Below the pieces are notes generated by a model. It was not told where the DNA came from. It saw only the letters and a program-made list of their open reading frames with translations, and made no database searches. From Bacteroidetes bacterium UKL13-3 (GTDB lineage Bacteria; Bacteroidota; Bacteroidia; UKL13-3): a stretch of 64,000 nucleotides of DNA. Position numbers and translations under genes: made by a program. Every line of letters starts with the position of its first letter. Within the stretch, counting starts at the first letter, position 1. Of the stretch, positions 2,778 through 59,291 are shown one piece after another. The DNA lies in assembly GCA_001602415.1 (NCBI GenBank), contig CP012155.1, forward strand, positions 2,874,824 through 2,938,823. Direction: 5' to 3'.

Positions 2778-3917
2778 CTAAACAGATGCGAGCATCTTGG
2801 CAATAACTTCCTCGTACATATTTTCGTATTGAGGCACAATTTTATCTATGTGAAAATCGTGTGCACGTTGACGAGCATTATGTTTGAACATTTTTAAGCG
2901 TTGGTCATCACTCAAAATATACAATGCTTTTTCGGCCATTGCATCAACATCTCCAACATTGCACATAAAACCGGTTTTTCCATCAATGTTTAACTCAGGA
3001 ATTCCACCTGCATTGCTGGATACAACTGGAACTTCGCAAGCCATTGCTTCTAAAGCTGCCAAACCAAAACTCTCCGTTTCAGAAGGCATCAAGAACAAAT
3101 CTCCTATAGACAATACTTCTTCAACAGCATCTTGTTTTCCAAGGAAACTAATGCCATCACAGAGTTTTAAATCACGACACAGTTGCTCAATATTTTGTCT
3201 TTCCGGACCATCTCCAACCAGCAATAATTTTGCGTCCATCTGCTCACGTATTTTGCCGAACACACGTACCACATCTTCTACCCGTTTTACTTTTCTAAAG
3301 TTAGATGTATGAATAATAATCTTTTCTCCATTGGGTGAAACCGCCATTTTAAAATGCTCTTTGGCCTGTTTGCTAAAACGATCAAAATCAATAAAGTTTG
3401 GAATAATGGCAATATCGCGTGTTACTTTAAAGTGATCGTATGTATCTTGTTTTAACGAGGCTGAAACAGCCGTAACTCCGTTGGATTGGTTTAACGAGTA
3501 ACTCACTACCGGTTCAAACGATTTATCCTTCCCAACCAATGTAATATCTGTTCCATGTAGCGTAGTTACAATAGGAATTTGAATTCCTTCAGTTGCCAAA
3601 ATATGTTTTGCCATAACGGCTGCCGAAGCATGTGGAATGGCATAATGTACATGCAATACATCCAGTTTTTCAAACTTAACCACATCCACCAATCTGCTTG
3701 TTAATGCAGTTTCATAAGGCGGAAAATCAAATAGGGGATAATGAGAAACATATACCTCGTGAAAGAAGATGTTACCTGTAAAAAAATCAAGGCGTGCAGG
3801 TTGTTTATATGAAATAAAATGAACCTGATGTCCGCGCATTGACAATGCTTTTCCAAGCTCAGTAGCTACTACACCGCTTCCTCCATATGTGGGATAACAA
3901 ACAATTCCTATTTTCAT
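2778..3917 (-). CDS. bshA: N-acetyl-alpha-D-glucosaminyl L-malate synthase (bacillithiol biosynthesis GT4)
   Basis: N-terminus MKIGIVCYPTYGGSGVVATELGKALSMRGHQVHFISY is the characteristic BshA signature. GT4 fold throughout. The start was moved to the internal ATG at 3917 (MKIGIV), since the ORF track starts 9 codons earlier. Confidence 0.8.
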   Translation of the reverse strand: MKIGIVCYPTYGGSGVVATELGKALSMRGHQVHFISYKQPARLDFFTGNIFFHEVYVSHYPLFDFPPYETALTSRLVDVVKFEKLDVLHVHYAIPHASAAVMAKHILATEGIQIPIVTTLHGTDITLVGKDKSFEPVVSYSLNQSNGVTAVSASLKQDTYDHFKVTRDIAIIPNFIDFDRFSKQAKEHFKMAVSPNGEKIIIHTSNFRKVKRVEDVVRVFGKIREQMDAKLLLVGDGPERQNIEQLCRDLKLCDGISFLGKQDAVEEVLSIGDLFLMPSETESFGLAALEAMACEVPVVSSNAGGIPELNIDGKTGFMCNVGDVDAMAEKALYILSDDQRLKMFKHNARQRAHDFHIDKIVPQYENMYEEVIAKMLASV

Positions 3918-4050
3918 GTTGATTCTTTCTATTGGTAATACCATATCAATGAAGATATGTTCTAAAATACTGGAAGTATCGTTTAACTAATTTACAACTA
4001 ACGCACAAAGTTAATCTAAAATCACAAAGATGACGTTAACGATACACTAC

Positions 4051-15491: not shown

Positions 15492-16238
15492 TTATGCTTC
15501 GGTTGTTTCGGCAGCGGGTGCTGCTTCTTTATCTTCAGCTTCTTTATCTTTTTTGCGTTCAGTTAATCCTTCTGCAATGGCATTGGTCATAACTTTTGCA
15601 ATCAAAGCAATTGATTTTGCTGCATCATCATTTGCAGGAATCGGGAAATCAACAACAGTTGGATCTGAGTTGGTATCAACGATAGCAAAGGTAGGGATGT
15701 TTAATTTTTGTGCTTCAGCAATTGCAATGTGTTCGCGTTTGATATCTACAATAAACAACGCAGCAGGAAGACGGTTCAAATCAGCAATACCACCAAATAA
15801 TCTGGTTAATTTTGCTTTTTCACGCTCCAACATCAAACGCTCTTTTTTGTTGATATTTTGGTAAGTACCATCTACAGCCATTTTATCAATGGTTTGCATT
15901 TTTTTGATAGACTTACGTACAGTAGTAAAGTTGGTTAACATACCACCCAACCAGCGCTCCGTTACAAAAGGCATGTTTACACGTGCAGCTTCTGTTTCGA
16001 TGATTTCTTTCGCTTGTTTTTTGGTAGCTACGAACAATACCTTACGACCCGACTTAACGATGTTTTTCAACGCTTCTGCCGACTCTTCCAACTTTACAGC
16101 TGTTTTATTAAGGTCGATCAAGTGGATTCCGTTTTTCTCCATAAAAATATACGGAGCCATTTTTGGATTCCATTTGCGGGTAAGATGTCCAAAGTGAACA
16201 CCAGCCTCTAACAATTCTTCTTGAGTTATTTTTGACAT
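15492..16238 (-). CDS. rpsB: 30S ribosomal protein S2
   Basis: [32 protein letters not shown]. Confidence 0.95.
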
Positions 16239-51508: not shown

Positions 51509-52879
51509 TTACTCTGTTAATTTAATAATTCTTTTTAAGTTGACTGCAAAAATTGCCAGTGCACCCTGCATTTGCATATTACTAATGCCATAGGATATTG
51601 CTCTATCGTATCCGTGTATGTTTTTTAACTCACTATTTTTTGCTTCAATTTTATAACGATGCTTTGATTTTTCTTTATAATAATCGGTTTCTTGAAAGAC
51701 TGTTTGTTCTTGATGTAGGTCTGATTTAATTGTTAACGAATAGGTTTTTGTTTTTGCTCCTTCTTTATAACAACCCTCTTTTAAAGGGCATGTTTTACAT
51801 TTGTCTGTATCAAAGTAGTATGTTACTGCTTGGTTTTTTCCAATATTTTTTGTGCCTTGACGAGCCTTTTTTAATGCCATATGACCAGCAGGGCAAACAA
51901 ACATATCTGCATCTTTATTGTAATCAAATTTATCTTCATCCTTTCTTGTGCCTTGTGTGATTGAGGGATTTAGCCTTGCTACTATTTTAATATTTTGCTC
52001 TGTTGTAATTTTAAGATTTTCTTTTCCTGAATAGGCGGTATCGCCTATTATGGTATCCACATCAATTCCATTTTCTTGACTCATTTGTAAAAGTTTTGTT
52101 AACTCTGGCCCATCTCCTTTTTCACCCGATGTTACTACTGCTGCTGTAATAATGCGCTCTTCGGTCATGGCTATATGTGTTTTGTATCCAAAGAATGAGC
52201 TATCAGCTGATTTGTGCCCAATTCTTGCATCAGTATCTTTTGATAGGATGAAATTTTCTTGCGTATCTTCTACCGTTTCTTTTAGTAAATTGAGTTTTTC
52301 TTTTACACCAGGTATTGAACTAATAGTTGGTTCATTTTCTATTCGTTGCTCTAACTCTTTGCAATATGCTAACTCCTTTTCCAAATCATTATCAATGTTC
52401 TTTTGTGGCATATTTTCTTTCCATTCCTCATCAAACAAATACACCGCTTTCCTGAGTAACTTAGAGCGTTCACGTAATACTTCTATTGCTGAAAATGGAT
52501 TTGATCTTGATAGCGTATGTGTGGCATCTACTATAATTGACTTTGAACGAATGATGCCTTTTTCAACTGCTATACTGACTGTTTTGTTTATTAATAAATC
52601 TAACAAGTCGGTGTCTTTTAAACATAGTTTTCTAAACTTGGTCAATGAACTAGAATTTATTACTTCCTCTTCTGGTGTCATTTCTAAAAAGTATTTAAAT
52701 GACATATCGTATCGTGAACGCTCAACTACATCAGATATTGTATAAATTGTTTTCAAAAGTAAATACTTGAACATGCGAACTGGACTTTCCGCCATTCGGC
52801 CATTATTCATGCAATATTTATTTACTAGCTCCTCGTATACAAAGGAAAAGTCTACTAATTCATTAATTTTTCTAAGCAA
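51509..52879 (-). mobile_element. IS1182/IS5-like DDE transposase gene, 5'-truncated (N-terminal ~30 codons replaced by a stop)
   Basis: DUF772/InsH-N motif VRMFKYLLLKTIYTISDVVERSRYDMSFKYFLEM. The frame upstream reads *DLIVPKHNLLRKINELVD, matching the canonical IS1182 N-terminus (DDLIPEDH..R.VNEVID) but cut by TAA. Only a TTG start is available. Confidence 0.7.
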
Positions 52880-53932: not shown

Positions 53933-54235
53933 ATGGAAAAGTTAGTGAAACCTATATTCAATAAGCGCATCTTCTGGGATGTGACTATTGAAACATTGGA
54001 TATTGATGCCAAGGCTAACTTTGTTATTGAACGGGTATTTGAGCGTGGCGATGTGGATGATATCAGGCAGTGTAGAAGGTATTACGGGGATGCTAAAGTG
54101 AGAGAAGCATTACTCAATGCAAAATATTTACCCCTGCATACAATTTATTTGGCAAGTGCTGTTGTTGACGAACCCTTAGAAGCATTCAGATGTTACAAAC
54201 TCAGACAGTTGAACCCGGGACTTTATCCCTACTAA
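53933..54235 (+). CDS. small conserved protein upstream-overlapping an AbiEii-type nucleotidyltransferase (candidate antitoxin-like partner)
   Basis: 100 aa: ...RIFWDVTIETLDIDAKANFVIERVFERGDVDDIRQCRRYYG.... Recognised as a recurring ~100-aa partner ORF of AbiEii/DUF1814 genes in Bacteroidetes. The family name is not certain. 46-nt overlap with the next gene. Confidence 0.4.
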   Translation: MEKLVKPIFNKRIFWDVTIETLDIDAKANFVIERVFERGDVDDIRQCRRYYGDAKVREALLNAKYLPLHTIYLASAVVDEPLEAFRCYKLRQLNPGLYPY

Positions 54236-54815
54236 AAACATTAATGTACGTTCCTGTTCTAAAACAATCGTATCTGGTTGGAGGAACGGCACTTTCATTG
54301 TTATATGGACATCGTATTTCCATTGATCTTGATTTGTTTTATCATGATGATTTGGACAAAACAGCCATTATTCAAAGCCTCACAAACTTGTTCAAGATCG
54401 ATTTTGACTATCGAGGAAATCCCAATTCTTTGGGTATCTTTTGCAATATACGTAATGAAAAGTTGACATTATAAAGTACCCTCATCCAATCATCCATCCA
54501 ACCCAACTTATTGATGGGATAAGAATGTATCATACCGATGATATTGTGGCTATGAAAATGAATGCACTATTAGGCAGAGCAAAAAAGAAGGATTTTTGGG
54601 ACGTAGCCGAATTATTGAAGCATTATTCTATTGCTAAAATGGTGGAACTTCATAAGAAAAAGTATCCAAGCCAGATGCTCCTTATTTCAGTGCCGCAAGC
54701 TTTGATTTATTTCAATGAAGCTGAAGAAAGCGAAGATCCCATCAGCCTTAACGGACAAACTTGGGAAAGCGTTAAGAAAACAATTCGGGCTGCAGTGAGG
54801 GATTATTTAAGTTGA
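54190..54815 (+). pseudogene. nucleotidyltransferase AbiEii/AbiGii toxin family (DUF1814) gene split by a frameshift near 54455-54465
   Basis: Piece 1 in frame 1 carries the NTase motif LVGGTALSLLYGHRISIDLDLF and ends ...NIRNEKLTL*. Frame 3 is open from 54459 as KVDIIKYPHPIIHPTQLIDGIRMYHTDDIVAMKMNALLGRAKKKDFWDVAELL, the conserved AbiEii C-terminal pattern. A 1-nt indel at the AAAA run 54457-54460 would fuse them into a ~208-aa protein. Confidence 0.65.
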
Positions 54816-54865: not shown

Positions 54866-55840
54866 CTACCACCAACCTCTGAAATTATAACTCACAACTT
54901 TAGGTTGATTGTTACCATAAGCCACACCAATATCACGTGCAGCATTGATAAGTGCTTTAGACTCTTCTTCATCGGCTTGTTGTTGCTTCAATTTTAGGTC
55001 CCACTCACGTTTATCCAATTCTTTTACTCGTTTGGCAATCTTTTCATACAATTGTTTCACATCAGTATAACAAGTTGATTGAGGATTAATATTCGCTAAA
55101 ATCTGCCCTGCATCATTAGCCGCATTTAAATCCTGATTAACAGACCAAATACTACTTGCTTTACTCAGTTCAACTTTGCACTCTTGATCTATTTTATACT
55201 TGTAAATTATTGTTATTTCTGGATTAACCTTTTTAAAACATTCAACACAAGCATCCGGAACCGCAGCCAATTTGGATATTGCTGCATCATATTCATTTCT
55301 TTTAGCAAGCTCTCTTGATTCTTTAATCAAAGCATCACACTTGTTATTATAATATTCCACAATTTTAGCTTTACCCTTATTCACAAACGGCTGGTATTGT
55401 GCATCATTGGGCTTAATTGATTTTAAAGCAGACAAGTAGGCTTTTGTTTCATTTTCACCAACACCTTTAACAGTGGTGGTGTAGTTTGAAAACTTAGTTC
55501 CATCAATACCATCTCCAATGACCATTGATATTTCAAGAGTATACGCTTGCATAACTGGAGTTGTTGGCGTTATGTCTTTTGAAATTACAAAAACAGTTGC
55601 TGCTAAAACAAATCTAGTTTGTATAGCATTACCTGAAACTCCAGACGAGGTGGCTATTTGATTCAACTTGCTTTCTAATAAACTCTTTGCGGATTGTGGT
55701 AATCCCTCATTGGGTTCTACTACAGCAGTTGCTAGGGAAATTCGGCCTAAATCTTTAGATGCCAATTTTTCACCTTGAGCAAAGGTGCTCAATCGAAAAA
55801 TAAGCATAGTTCCTAATACTATAAAATGATATGTTCTCAT
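54866..55840 (-). CDS. exported hypothetical protein (operon gene 4 of 4)
   Basis: 324 aa, signal peptide (cleavage ~FAQ|GE). Several Cys in the C-terminal half. No recognised catalytic motif. Confidence 0.45.
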   Translation of the reverse strand: MRTYHFIVLGTMLIFRLSTFAQGEKLASKDLGRISLATAVVEPNEGLPQSAKSLLESKLNQIATSSGVSGNAIQTRFVLAATVFVISKDITPTTPVMQAYTLEISMVIGDGIDGTKFSNYTTTVKGVGENETKAYLSALKSIKPNDAQYQPFVNKGKAKIVEYYNNKCDALIKESRELAKRNEYDAAISKLAAVPDACVECFKKVNPEITIIYKYKIDQECKVELSKASSIWSVNQDLNAANDAGQILANINPQSTCYTDVKQLYEKIAKRVKELDKREWDLKLKQQQADEEESKALINAARDIGVAYGNNQPKVVSYNFRGWW

Positions 55841-55853
55841 ATACTTTTTAGTT

Positions 55854-56807
55854 TTATTTTTCTCCTATTACTATAGTTACCTGACCAAGCCCCTTCATCA
55901 TCAGTTTCGATTCAACTTGATAAGTATCCTTAAGATGTTTTTGTAGTCCTTTTCCCCAACCTCTTGCATCCAGAGCCTTACCATTTGAATCAATCATCGG
56001 AATACGAACTTGTTCAAAAAGCATCATATTCTCTGTTGCATCACTTGTGTTAAATCTTCCTTGTACAGTATTTTCTGAAACCCATTTCTCAATTTGGGAG
56101 CCCAGCTCCGCTCCTCCATATTCCTTCTCTAAATCTCCATCAAATGAATCCCACTTCTTAATTCTTAGTACGATCTCGCGTCCATTTTTAAACCAGTCGT
56201 CAAAACCGGCTTGTAGAAGTGAATTGAAATTGTCAATGTGAGATAAAACAGCCTCTTCCAACAATACCGGAAGTTCGGCTGTAAAAGAAGGTACTCCTGT
56301 ACCGGATGCTCCTGCAATTTGTTTGTCGGTATAAGCATCTAAACCTTGTAAATTAAAAGTAATAGACTTTTTAGGCCCTGTCTGATTCACCGTCCATGTC
56401 AGCTGCATCCAGATATCAGCCTTTGCTGTTTTTTTCAGTTTATCAACAGGTGATTCGCTGATGGTAGATCCCGCCTTGCTCGTCATCATTGCTGATTCAG
56501 CGGCTTCACTCTCCAACGTTTTGATTGATGACTCTAAGTTTTTCAAGGGGAATCCCCTTGCTGCCATCAAATCATTTATTTTACTTATTACCAATAACAA
56601 GTCGGTACTTTCTTGAACTGCTCGCTTATAATCGGATACTTTTATTTTAGTTCCTTGGTTATCATATTCAAGTACATAACCATTTTTTATGCACCAAGCA
56701 TCGCTCGGCACAACCATAATAGTTGGCTTTTTTGCTTGACCCATAACAACTTCTACTAAAGAAGTTACTATAGCTAATGTTATTACTATTCGTTTATAGA
56801 TTCTCAT
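55854..56807 (-). CDS. exported hypothetical protein (operon gene 3 of 4)
   Basis: 317 aa, N-terminal signal/anchor, conserved-looking TIMVVPSDAWC segment. 13-bp gap to the next gene. Confidence 0.45.
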   Translation of the reverse strand: MRIYKRIVITLAIVTSLVEVVMGQAKKPTIMVVPSDAWCIKNGYVLEYDNQGTKIKVSDYKRAVQESTDLLLVISKINDLMAARGFPLKNLESSIKTLESEAAESAMMTSKAGSTISESPVDKLKKTAKADIWMQLTWTVNQTGPKKSITFNLQGLDAYTDKQIAGASGTGVPSFTAELPVLLEEAVLSHIDNFNSLLQAGFDDWFKNGREIVLRIKKWDSFDGDLEKEYGGAELGSQIEKWVSENTVQGRFNTSDATENMMLFEQVRIPMIDSNGKALDARGWGKGLQKHLKDTYQVESKLMMKGLGQVTIVIGEK

Positions 56808-56867
56808 ACGTATGTTAATTTTTAATGGTGAAACACTTGGTATAATTACTCTCTATTTCCTTTGGGC

Positions 56868-57380
56868 TCAGAACCCGGAACTTAGAGACTTAATTATTCT
56901 TTCATCTTCAAGAAACTTTCTCAATTGAGTAACATTTACAGAGACCAATACACCTATCTTATATTCTCTACCTATTCGTAATCTATCCTCTGCAGCCACT
57001 GAACCATCATTAGATAAGTTTACATATTTCATGTATTTACCACCATCCATAAAAAACTCGTTAAAAAAACTTGACTTCTCTTTTTCAATAGATGAATTTG
57101 TGGCAAGGGGATTTTGACCCGGTATGCCTTGTTTTCCAGCAAAACCCTTAAATATAATTCCGTGAACGGCATTCTTTTTTGCTTGCTCAATTGCAACTTC
57201 CGGTTTGGCAGAGTAGGACCAAACCTTAATCAAATAAGTTCCCTGAATTCCGGTATTTACAGCCTCAATTTCATATCGCCAATTGTCCGTATCTTTATTT
57301 ACCTGTTTTTTAGATTGACAAGACGAAGCGTTAACTCCCAATAAAATCAAGAGTATTAAGTTTATTAGTATTGTTCTCAT
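56868..57380 (-). CDS. hypothetical lipoprotein (operon gene 2 of 4)
   Basis: 170 aa, lipoprotein-type signal (GVNASSC). Confidence 0.45.
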   Translation of the reverse strand: MRTILINLILLILLGVNASSCQSKKQVNKDTDNWRYEIEAVNTGIQGTYLIKVWSYSAKPEVAIEQAKKNAVHGIIFKGFAGKQGIPGQNPLATNSSIEKEKSSFFNEFFMDGGKYMKYVNLSNDGSVAAEDRLRIGREYKIGVLVSVNVTQLRKFLEDERIIKSLSSGF

Positions 57381-57388
57381 TACTAAGT

Positions 57389-58654
57389 TTATTTTAATTG
57401 TCGAATAAGCATCCCAGAATAAAACTTCTTACCTCCTTTGAAAGTTGTACGATCAATTACCGGCTTTGTTGTATCCGTCTCAGTCGAAGATTCTTCTCCG
57501 GCATTAAATCTATTATCCCAAAGCAACTTTTTATCTACTTTGATAGTTCCTTTAGATTCGTACTTTGTTAACCCGGTCTTAGGGTCAATAACCTGTTCCA
57601 AAACTTCAAATTTCTCACCGCCTTCTAATCCCTCTTTCATTCCTATTTTTGCAGTTATTGGATAACCTGTATACAAGGGAACTTTCGGTTTAAATACATC
57701 ATATTTCTTTTGAAGTTTAGCATAAACAGCGTCAACATTTCGAACTGTTGACAATGCGATAATTTGACTTTCTGTACGTTTTTCTTTTAGAGAAAAGGTA
57801 ACGAGACTAGTTGCCTTCTCTTGCCCTACGAATTCAAGACTAAATAAATTGGTTTTATCAAATGCTTCTTTTTTAGAGGGGCTTACAGATGATTTATCGA
57901 ACCACAAATCATTATAAAATATGGCAGCAATTGAGTCATTCCATTTTAACTTGTACAGATACGAAGTAGTCCACACAGAATATCCTTCTTTTGTTTTTTC
58001 ATACAGTGCATCTGCTGATTTGATTGCAACTTGTTGCATCATGGGATTAGGCATTTGATTTGCAGCTAGTTTAGATGCGTCTCTGATTCCTGCTGCAAAT
58101 ACCTCATTGCTTAAAAATGTAACCTTGGAAAATACTACAAACGTATTTCCTATCAACTCCTCCCCTGCATCGGCTAGGGAAGAAGCTCCTCTTGCACTGC
58201 CTTTAGCGATATTTGCTTCCATGTCGGAAGCATTATAAGCCCCTCGTTCTCCAATTAACTGCATATCAAATGATCCATCCACTTTTCTATTGAACCATTT
58301 TGCAACCAATTTATTGGCGATCTTTTGGTCCGCTATAAATCTATCAATGGCGGGTTGTGTTTCCGATATTTCCTTGTCAGCATCGGCAGCACTCTTTGCT
58401 GTTGCTCCGTAATTTTTAGGATTAAACGATTTTATTCCAATATTGTGATCATTATATTTATCAGGAAAGGGTGAAGTGTTGTATGCTTGTATTACCACTT
58501 CTTTATTCGGGAAATTATCTGCCTCCAATAAAATTGTGTGTAATGAACTCCTACGATACTTGATATCCGGAGTTTTGTCTGCGTTTTGCGCATACGTTGT
58601 TACAAAAGCAGACATAAGCGTTGCTGCTAATGATGAGTAAATGAATTTGTTCAT
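57389..58654 (-). CDS. exported hypothetical protein (operon gene 1 of 4)
   Basis: 421 aa, signal peptide (YAQ|NA). 8-bp gap to the next gene. Confidence 0.45.
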   Translation of the reverse strand: MNKFIYSSLAATLMSAFVTTYAQNADKTPDIKYRRSSLHTILLEADNFPNKEVVIQAYNTSPFPDKYNDHNIGIKSFNPKNYGATAKSAADADKEISETQPAIDRFIADQKIANKLVAKWFNRKVDGSFDMQLIGERGAYNASDMEANIAKGSARGASSLADAGEELIGNTFVVFSKVTFLSNEVFAAGIRDASKLAANQMPNPMMQQVAIKSADALYEKTKEGYSVWTTSYLYKLKWNDSIAAIFYNDLWFDKSSVSPSKKEAFDKTNLFSLEFVGQEKATSLVTFSLKEKRTESQIIALSTVRNVDAVYAKLQKKYDVFKPKVPLYTGYPITAKIGMKEGLEGGEKFEVLEQVIDPKTGLTKYESKGTIKVDKKLLWDNRFNAGEESSTETDTTKPVIDRTTFKGGKKFYSGMLIRQLK

Positions 58655-58811
58655 ATTCTTTGGTTTGATCCTACTCTTCAGGCTTTTCGGTTAACGCCTC
58701 TGCATGAAAATACCCCACGCAGAAAGGGTATCGCATCTGCGACATAAGTTCTCAAATAAATGGTTTGCTTGTTAAATAAGTGATGGGCAGAGGTTGTGAG
58801 CATTTAGGGAT

Positions 58812-58827
58812 TATTTGTCTACAAATA
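58812..58827. promoter_or_regulatory. palindromic operator-like site TATTTGT-ct-ACAAATA in divergent intergenic region
   Basis: 7-bp perfect inverted arms with a 2-bp spacer, in the 247-bp region between the 4-gene exported-protein operon and the divergent XRE regulator. Confidence 0.35.
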
Positions 58828-58925
58828 AAAAAGAAAATTTACGTAATTATCAAATTAATAATTTTATTATTACTATTAATATACTAATTATCTGAATGTA
58901 AGTGTTTTATTTACAACCTTGCGAC

Positions 58926-59291
58926 ATGCATTTAGGCTTACGTATTAAGATTGCCCGCATCAGCAAAGGATTGACTCAGGAACAGTTGGCGGAAAAAATA
59001 AATAAGACAAGACCACTGATTAGTAGCATTGAGCAAACGGGAAAAGTAAACTACTATACCCTTAAGAAAATATGTGAGGTATTGGATTTAGATCTTGACG
59101 AGGTAAATCACGAAGCCAATGATCCTCAAACAGAGTATGGATTCCCTAAAAATACGAAACAAACCGATCGGGTAAAACAACTGGAGAAAGAAGCGCAACA
59201 ACTCCACCTGCTCACACAGTCGCAAGCAGATCTTATTGCAGTGCTAAAAGAAAAAATAGACCTGTTGGAAAAGAAAATCAAGAAAAAATAA
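58926..59291 (+). CDS. XRE-family HTH transcriptional regulator with C-terminal coiled coil
   Basis: LGLRIKIARISKGLTQEQLAEKINKTRPLISSIEQTGK is an HTH_XRE. The C-terminus is Leu/Lys-rich heptads. Start taken at the internal ATG 58926 (ORF track 58902). Confidence 0.7.
   Translation: MHLGLRIKIARISKGLTQEQLAEKINKTRPLISSIEQTGKVNYYTLKKICEVLDLDLDEVNHEANDPQTEYGFPKNTKQTDRVKQLEKEAQQLHLLTQSQADLIAVLKEKIDLLEKKIKKK

Follow-up and report, generated by a model that had tools for sequence, protein, structure and literature searches.

An uncharacterized exported protein module of Bacteroidota with a DUF805b-type RNA leader element

Introduction

Whether adjacent genes for exported proteins form a functional unit, and what governs their expression, is the question raised by a locus in the genome of Bacteroidetes bacterium UKL13-3. 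Within the stretch of DNA analyzed here (64,000 nucleotides, nt; hereafter the window), four minus-strand genes, lettered A, B, C and D in operon order, lie beside a divergently oriented gene for an XRE-family regulator. A preliminary description had proposed a candidate undescribed system at the edge of a decayed accessory region, possibly a lipoprotein complex, with the regulator as its partner. The envelope of Bacteroidota differs from that of Proteobacteria, having a distinct BAM complex, surface lipoproteins and type IX secretion, and many conserved envelope genes of the phylum have no assigned role. Here, we report that A-B-C-D is a real operon and one copy of an uncharacterized exported module distributed across Bacteroidota; the copy in the window is an ordinary member of this module, accompanied by a lineage-specific XRE neighbor.

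Results

Gene A (57389-58654, minus strand, as for all four) encodes an exported protein of 421 amino acids (aa) with an alpha/beta domain and a C-terminal small beta-barrel, and gene B (56868-57380) encodes a small exported protein of 170 aa, a paralog of the additional protein B′ present in most relatives of the locus. The product of gene C (55854-56807; 317 aa) is an exported, full-length member of the Pfam family DUF6175, and that of gene D (54866-55840; 324 aa) is exported and combines an alpha/beta N-terminal domain with a TPR-like helical and coiled-coil tail. The genes are separated by 8, 60 and 13 nt, and each of the four products begins with a hydrophobic signal peptide; coordinates and open reading frames (ORFs) therefore agree with the arrangement given in the preliminary description. 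Protein A is 100% identical to AEM51_12915 of UKL13-3, a taxon that is unclassified within Bacteroidota. Homologs at E ≤ 1e-3 numbered 2176 for A, 1356 for B and 814 for D, nearly all annotated as "hypothetical", and these counts establish A, B and D as real genes.

Scanning one genome per GTDB species, we detected a relative of A in 432 species, and the best 80 loci among these were taken for comparison (individual loci are cited with the prefix L). These 80 loci belong to Sphingobacteriales (Mucilaginibacter, Pedobacter), Chitinophagaceae, Cytophagales, Flavobacteriales (including Flavobacterium, Tenacibaculum and Salegentibacter) and Bacteroidales (including Rikenellaceae, Muribaculaceae and Draconibacterium). 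When gene order was tallied over 86 loci, the arrangement A-B-B′-C-D was found in 56 and the A-B-C-D form of the window in 18, and almost all of the remainder were interrupted by contig ends. B′, which the window lacks, is a diverged paralog of B (hhalign probability 99.7%), and B and B′ were the only related pair in profile-profile comparisons among A, B, B′, C and D. Clustering of all neighboring ORFs revealed no further gene family that co-travels with the module, and its flanking genes are shared only within a genus; the module is thus self-contained, and the window copy is not a by-product of the decayed region beside it. The preliminary description had suggested examining whether the four-gene order and the XRE gene are conserved together: the gene order recurs in all major orders of the phylum, whereas the XRE gene accompanies it in one lineage only. 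Mean column identity among sampled relatives from several orders was 61% for A, 65% for B, 73% for C and 69% for D, a strong constraint that would fit many protein interfaces. Given its wide distribution, strong conservation and constant set of partners, the module is likely to be one functional unit.

Two peculiarities of the comparison set deserve mention. Contigs labeled as Bifidobacteriaceae (L057) and Bifidobacterium breve (L067) metagenome-assembled genomes (MAGs) bear this Bacteroidota module and are probably mis-binned. In L066 (9230-9300), a single ORF of 587 aa contains both A and B but lacks the last five codons and stop of A and the start of the B signal peptide. This could be a small deletion or a MAG assembly error, so the join is weak evidence for an interaction between A and B, and an apparent A-B profile match that originated from this single fused ORF was rejected.

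At the sequence level, only C belongs to a described family. It matched PF19672 (DUF6175) with E 8.7e-124 and 412.8 bits (cut-off 23), with residues 26-315 covering profile positions 1-293 of 293, and all 27 of its 27 aligned relatives matched the same family. About 70 residues of C are invariant, many of them charged or polar. Conserved features also mark the other subunits: D has five invariant cysteines and ends in ..RGWW in most species, B ends in ..SGF in most species, and the mature N-terminus of A carries the conserved sequence KYRRSSL. A, B and D gave no meaningful match in Pfam, NCBIfam, PADLOC or PHROG, and none of the four proteins has a meaningful sequence relative in the PDB, whether searched as single sequences or as family profiles. 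In PADLOC specifically, A, B and C matched nothing and D gave only a chance-level match to JetC (E 0.028). The earlier view that the exported set contains no recognizable catalytic domain stands, DUF6175 being the only family returned by the library scans, and no function of the set is described in the libraries or literature searched; DUF6175 itself was not mentioned in that literature.

Several weak matches were considered and discarded. An NCBIfam BamJ match of B (E 0.025) covers the signal peptide, and BamJ is an FKBP-type isomerase lipoprotein (PMC12578637). The resemblance of the B C-terminus to HTH_CodY, seen when members of the B and C alignments were compared with Pfam at E ≤ 1, was the only match, short and sub-threshold, and is regarded as spurious. 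The UniRef names "DUF2271 domain-containing" and "SPOR domain-containing", attached to the B orthologs P0245 and P0321, were not confirmed, as neither family matched B or its relatives in Pfam scans.

Structural comparison was based on AlphaFold models of A and D. The A model comprises an alpha/beta sandwich followed by the C-terminal small beta-barrel, and both models share the alpha/beta fold of FlgT, CsgG, LptE and PelC. For D (table value of the model, 82.6), the N-terminal domain matched FlgT (8.1), Cj1090c (8.1) and CsgG (7.5), and the long, helical, TPR-like tail matched BamD (8.5) and the TPR region of BepA (8.3); D combines a TolB-N-like domain with a CpoB-like TPR/coiled coil. The fold matches of A include the C-terminal domain of LpoB and TolB-N. 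Overall, periplasmic proteins located at the inner face of the outer membrane are strongly over-represented among the matches, and ring or plug formation is known for several of these proteins. The resemblance of the A and D models to FlgT, CsgG, LptE and PelC lies at the level of predicted fold and is not proof of homology. Profile searches and structure prediction, the checks proposed earlier, thus placed C in DUF6175 and gave A and D envelope-like folds, but led to no family with a known shared function.

The export signals define the type of processing expected for the four proteins. Between 92% and 96% of the relatives of A, B, C and D carry a cleavage site consisting of a small residue followed by Gln, the usual signal-peptidase-I site of Bacteroidota, and A of the window has such a site (TYA/Q). 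Lipoprotein signals were scored with a PROSITE-type lipobox pattern, [LIVMFWSTAG]2-[LIVMFYSTAGCQ]-[AGS]-C following the hydrophobic region. Window A, C and D have no Cys at the lipobox position. B reads N-A-S-S-C and then Q; the lipobox noted in the preliminary description is literally present, but the Asn at -4 violates the pattern, and in nearly all relatives the position of the Cys is occupied by the -1 Ala of an Ala-Gln cleavage site, which makes the lipoprotein status of window B ambiguous. Among 76 complete loci, a strict lipobox occurs mainly on B′ (30 of 76), the protein missing here. The idea of a lipoprotein complex was accordingly not upheld, as more than 90% of the relatives of A to D are substrates of signal peptidase I.

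Variants of A and B′ carry additional domains. An exhaustive profile search for A returned 1257 clusters at 50% identity, and N-terminal extensions are present in at least 44 of the best 150 cluster representatives, where KYRRSSL is preceded by a median of 337 residues. When scanned, the extensions contained a lipobox with PEGA, LysM, Sel1 repeats, DUF4377 with META, DUF2846, or UVR coiled coils, and one variant of A has a C-terminal tail ending in ..GLNFGF that resembles a small outer-membrane barrel. The PEGA form of A sits in the same A-B-B′-C-D operon. Fusions of B′ to a C-terminal Peptidase_C14 (caspase) domain occur in two MAGs of groundwater Bacteroidetes (L004, 3200-4606, E 8e-23; L013, 2324-3694, E 2e-20). 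These domain variants therefore point to the envelope, at the inner face of the outer membrane and the peptidoglycan, as the probable site of action. Extended relatives of A include P0376, P0387, P0392, P0418, P0476, P0399 and the ORF at 143-5086 of L088, which contain low-complexity linkers; the A domain is modular and lies outside every Pfam model. On one metagenomic contig (L087), a LysM-form A is immediately preceded by a gene for a DsbA-like thioredoxin (3351-4007), which may have a bearing on the invariant cysteines found in D, C and B′.

Upstream of A, the main regulatory feature, overlooked in the preliminary description, is a DUF805b-type RNA leader. The motif (58668-58700, minus strand) comprises a hairpin AGGC...GCCU, whose loop is ACCGAAAAG, and after it the sequence GAAGAGUAGG; 13 nt separate the end of the motif from the start codon of A. 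The motif matched RF02914 (DUF805b) with 31.6 bits (E 4.9e-5 for the whole window) and was the sole Rfam match in the 64 kb at E ≤ 0.01. At orthologous sites directly upstream of A, RF02914 scored 36.6 bits in L084 and L085, which is above gathering, 33.8 in L043 and 31.1 in L086. The full DUF805 motif (RF03081, gathering 51.1), which has conserved loops and an A-rich linker in addition to its two hairpins (GUGG..CCAC and GGC..GCC), was found upstream of A in many relatives that are more distant, among them L014 (77.7 bits), L069 (70.4), L013 (61.2) and L018 (58.6). A covariance model that we constructed from 12 DUF805-type leaders upstream of A, termed R1, matched directly upstream of A in 24 loci; compensatory changes were present in 6 of its 7 base pairs, and covariation backs both hairpins. 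The window itself yielded no RF03081 or R1 match.

In the lineage of the window, the first canonical DUF805 hairpin is missing, and the DUF805b hairpin is preceded instead by a hairpin AUACCC-loop-GGGUAU (58710-58731, minus strand; loop UUUCUGCGUG), which is kept with compensatory changes in L005 and L007 (CCUU/AAGG) and in L086. Of the two alternative stem-loops previously placed at about 58690-58735, both are present: ATACCC/GGGTAT corresponds to this conserved leader hairpin, whereas the CGCAGA/TCTGCG stem (58718-58741), which overlaps it, is broken in L084. The minimum-free-energy fold of the leader was not unusually stable (z -1.64). Additional DUF805-type copies occur at 16065-16126 and 17101-17161 of L053 and at 11934-11997 of L061, where the small ORFs that follow them are unrelated and have no signal peptide (L053 16146-16700 and L061 12020-12400 are examples); the copy in L061 lies just after gene D, and the leader of A in that locus has no motif. 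Since such copies stand before unrelated ORFs, the DUF805-type motif is a general leader element and is not specific to this operon. No function of the DUF805 RNA motif was described in the titles and abstract openings of the literature searched, and the main text of the paper first describing the motif is silent on it.

Promoter-like elements lie farther upstream (58822-58854, minus strand), where TTTG (58851-58854) and TTTATTTG (58822-58829) are 21 nt apart. Both blocks are invariant in the five aligned intergenic regions (the window, L084, L085, L086 and L061). The promoter consensus of Bacteroidota is TTTG at -33 and TAnnTTTG at -7, and the TTTATTTG box has one mismatch to the latter. The pair is likely to be the putative promoter of the operon, giving a predicted leader of about 160 nt. 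A scan for sigma-70 promoters and terminators, which does not cover Bacteroidota promoters, returned nothing above chance.

The palindrome reported earlier at 58812-58827 is real and extends one base further on each side, forming the perfect 8+2+8 repeat TTATTTGT-ct-ACAAATAA at 58811-58828. The intergenic region between the XRE gene and the operon is 68% A+T and contains 18 inverted repeats; in Markov-shuffled copies, a perfect 8+8 repeat with a short spacer arose by chance in 6% and a 7+7 repeat in 19%. The palindrome is thus weakly beyond chance and is weak evidence when taken alone. Its left half is the TTTATTTG box, and it also overlaps the presumed transcription start. Only the two closest relatives retain its right half (L084 reads TTATTTG-N4-CAAATAA), which is absent from L086 and L061. 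The palindrome is a possible operator for the XRE protein. The -33-like TTTG is covered by a larger imperfect palindrome (58843-58873; GTAATTATCAAATTA / TAATTTTATTATTAC; 87% complementary), an alternative candidate operator. All five aligned loci share the left arm of this larger palindrome without change, and a similar repeat, ATTATCA...TGATAAT, is present in L086.

The divergent regulator gene (58926-59291, plus strand) encodes an XRE/Cro-C1 helix-turn-helix (HTH) protein of 121 aa from the ATG at 58926; the listed ORF begins at a GTG at 58902, and close relatives are called at 121 aa, which fits the ATG. Its presence, as previously described, was corroborated by a match to HTH_3 (PF01381; 44.8 bits, cut-off 23; E 1.3e-11), and its C-terminus is a heptad-rich helix. 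The gene is adjacent to the operon in the window, L084, L085 and L086 and lies 2.4 kb upstream in L061. That adjacency persists in L086 despite a different upstream flank speaks for a real linkage of regulator and operon within this clade. Nevertheless, tblastn and phmmer found the XRE gene in none of the other approximately 80 loci, and the proposal that it is a partner of the module does not hold. The XRE protein may bind over the promoter and so repress the operon, but it is a lineage-specific add-on on which the operon does not mainly depend.

Directly downstream of D lie a DUF6922 gene (53933-54235) and an AbiEii toxin gene split into two parts (54190-54474 and 54525-54815), which together are a decayed type IV toxin-antitoxin pair; the same fragments are present in L084 and L085. 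Approximately 2 kb beyond the module is an intact-looking DDE transposase gene (DUF772 and DDE_Tnp_1; 51509-52879), which is missing from the syntenic relatives L084 and L086. The placement of the module at the edge of a decayed accessory region is therefore correct as to its neighbors, the AbiEii/DUF6922 pair and an insertion sequence (IS) transposase, whereas the module, a phylum-wide unit, is not a product of that region.

Discussion

It is highly probable that this locus represents a conserved exported module that acts as a unit, has an RNA leader and, in the lineage of the window, stands beside a non-conserved XRE gene. How its products work is a more tentative matter: a scaffold or ring mechanism is possible, although we regard it as doubtful, and the combination of the general part with this mechanism is the best overall explanation, held with less than even confidence. 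According to this explanation, the four genes would be one transcription unit, the four-gene form of an A-B-(B′)-C-D module, transcribed from a phylum-type promoter about 160 nt upstream of A, with the DUF805b-type leader element probably acting in cis on expression; in this lineage alone, the divergent XRE repressor may add a second control through the palindrome over the promoter. The products, exported by Sec, would come together in the periplasm as a hetero-oligomeric scaffold located below the outer membrane and beside the cell wall, akin to the rings and plugs of FlgT, TsaP, CsgG, PelC and LptE. A and D would supply alpha/beta ring-type domains, the TPR-like tail of D and the beta-barrel of A could provide extra interfaces, and the assembly might be tethered via lipidated B′ or via N-terminal PEGA, LysM or barrel extensions of A in the genomes that have them.

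Several observations weigh against this picture. The module encodes no outer-membrane channel or inner-membrane partner, and the Pfam and NCBIfam models for FlgT, CsgG, LptE and PelC were unmatched by A, B, C and D at E ≤ 1. The invariant polar residues of C could indicate an enzyme or a ligand binder and not a scaffold. No subunit has a strict lipobox in 39 of the 76 complete loci, so tethering is not universal. As for the leader, its RF02914 score in the window is 4 bits below gathering (31.6 versus 35.6) because of a 2-nt deletion after the hairpin, a recognizable DUF805-type leader is present in only about one third of loci, and the DUF805-type RNA motif is itself without an explained function. 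Finally, literature and homolog searches turned up no experiment, paper or annotated homolog that gives the module a function.

The main rival to the scaffold is a periplasmic enzymatic or ligand-binding pathway, in which C would be catalytic or would bind a ligand such as peptidoglycan or another envelope polymer, with A, B and D in accessory or targeting roles similar to those of LpoB and CpoB, which are regulators of cell-wall synthases. The conservation of C, the most constrained subunit with its many invariant charged and polar residues, agrees with such a role, as do the LpoB C-terminal domain and TolB-N among the fold matches of A, the combination in D of a TolB-N-like domain with a CpoB-like TPR/coiled coil, the fusion of B′ to Peptidase_C14 in L004 and L013, and the relatives of A that, like LpoB, carry long flexible linkers and, in their case, a peptidoglycan-binding LysM domain. 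However, LysM is confined to some variants, and no subunit matched a catalytic motif or enzyme family in the Pfam and NCBIfam scans; we consider this pathway rather unlikely, though it is the alternative to be taken most seriously.

Readings that place the module in mobile or defense biology, or outside the cell, are less likely. If the genes were XRE-controlled accessory or mobile cargo, such as TraT-like surface exclusion or an anti-phage envelope barrier switched through a palindromic operator, the retention of the divergent XRE gene in L084, L085 and L086 despite the different upstream flank of L086, the palindrome over a promoter-like box, and the AbiEii fragments and IS transposase next door would find an explanation. 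Yet approximately 80 other loci have varied housekeeping neighbors and no XRE gene, clustering of neighbors detected no co-travelling integrase or conjugation genes, PADLOC and PHROG gave only single weak matches (best E 0.028), and the palindrome is weakly non-random and lost in L086 and L061, which together leave this origin improbable. Secreted or vesicle-borne surface proteins acting outside the cell, in adhesion or matrix formation, would likewise be consistent with the export of all four proteins, with their patchy, accessory-like distribution and with the PEGA and Sel1 domains of A variants, which are also known from surface proteins. Against this, a Pfam scan recognized no type IX secretion C-terminal domain in any subunit, the C-termini are short conserved motifs, the residues after the Cys of window B (CQSKKQ) and of the PEGA form of A (CSTVFYGRR) do not form an acidic lipoprotein-export signal, and the fold matches are proteins of the periplasmic face; an extracellular role is accordingly very improbable.

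Returning to the scaffold, its boldest version, an undescribed, Bacteroidota-specific periplasmic machine built of FlgT/TsaP/CsgG-fold subunits and governed by an orphan DUF805-family RNA, is a speculation that we consider unlikely to hold in full. If true, it would place an orphan riboswitch candidate in a physiological context for the first time, and the RNA would offer a way toward the signal to which the machine responds. Irrespective of the mechanism, the link to DUF805/DUF805b supplies a second gene set for an orphan cis-regulatory RNA and can restrict the search for the ligand or protein that binds it, and the module lends itself to genetics in Flavobacterium, Pedobacter or Mucilaginibacter. 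The protein families are already known as hypothetical or DUF database entries and the RNA motif is known from Rfam; the fixed five-gene module, the fold assignments, the anchoring variants and the association with a DUF805 leader were not found in the sources searched.

Comparison with known systems places these features in context. DUF6175 (PF19672), of which C is a full-length member, is a family without an assigned function, and its operon partners A, B, B′ and D and the RNA leader are unmentioned in the literature searched. FlgT, the scaffold of the Vibrio flagellar H-ring, and TsaP, the secretin-associated LysM protein of type IVa pili, have no sequence similarity to the module proteins; they lack the three or four dedicated partner proteins that accompany A, and no flagellum, pilus or secretin genes are found near the module. 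CsgG, PelC, LptE, PqiC and TraT are outer-membrane lipoproteins, whereas more than 90% of the relatives of A and D are substrates of signal peptidase I, and the cognate channel, polymer-synthesis and lipid-transport genes were not found in the module. XRE/Cro-C1 repressors with divergent target operons are alike in the HTH_3 domain, the divergent orientation and a palindrome over the target promoter, although here the linkage is restricted to one lineage and the operator is not co-conserved with the regulator in L086. The closest parallel among regulatory elements is to the DUF805 and DUF805b motifs (RF03081 and RF02914; clan CL00115), which are Bacteroidota cis-regulatory candidates. Although the gene downstream in the window does not encode a DUF805 (PF05656) protein, the window copy shares with these motifs the hairpin, the ACCGAAAAGCC loop-stem and the GAGUAGG tail, and is likewise located just upstream of a start codon.

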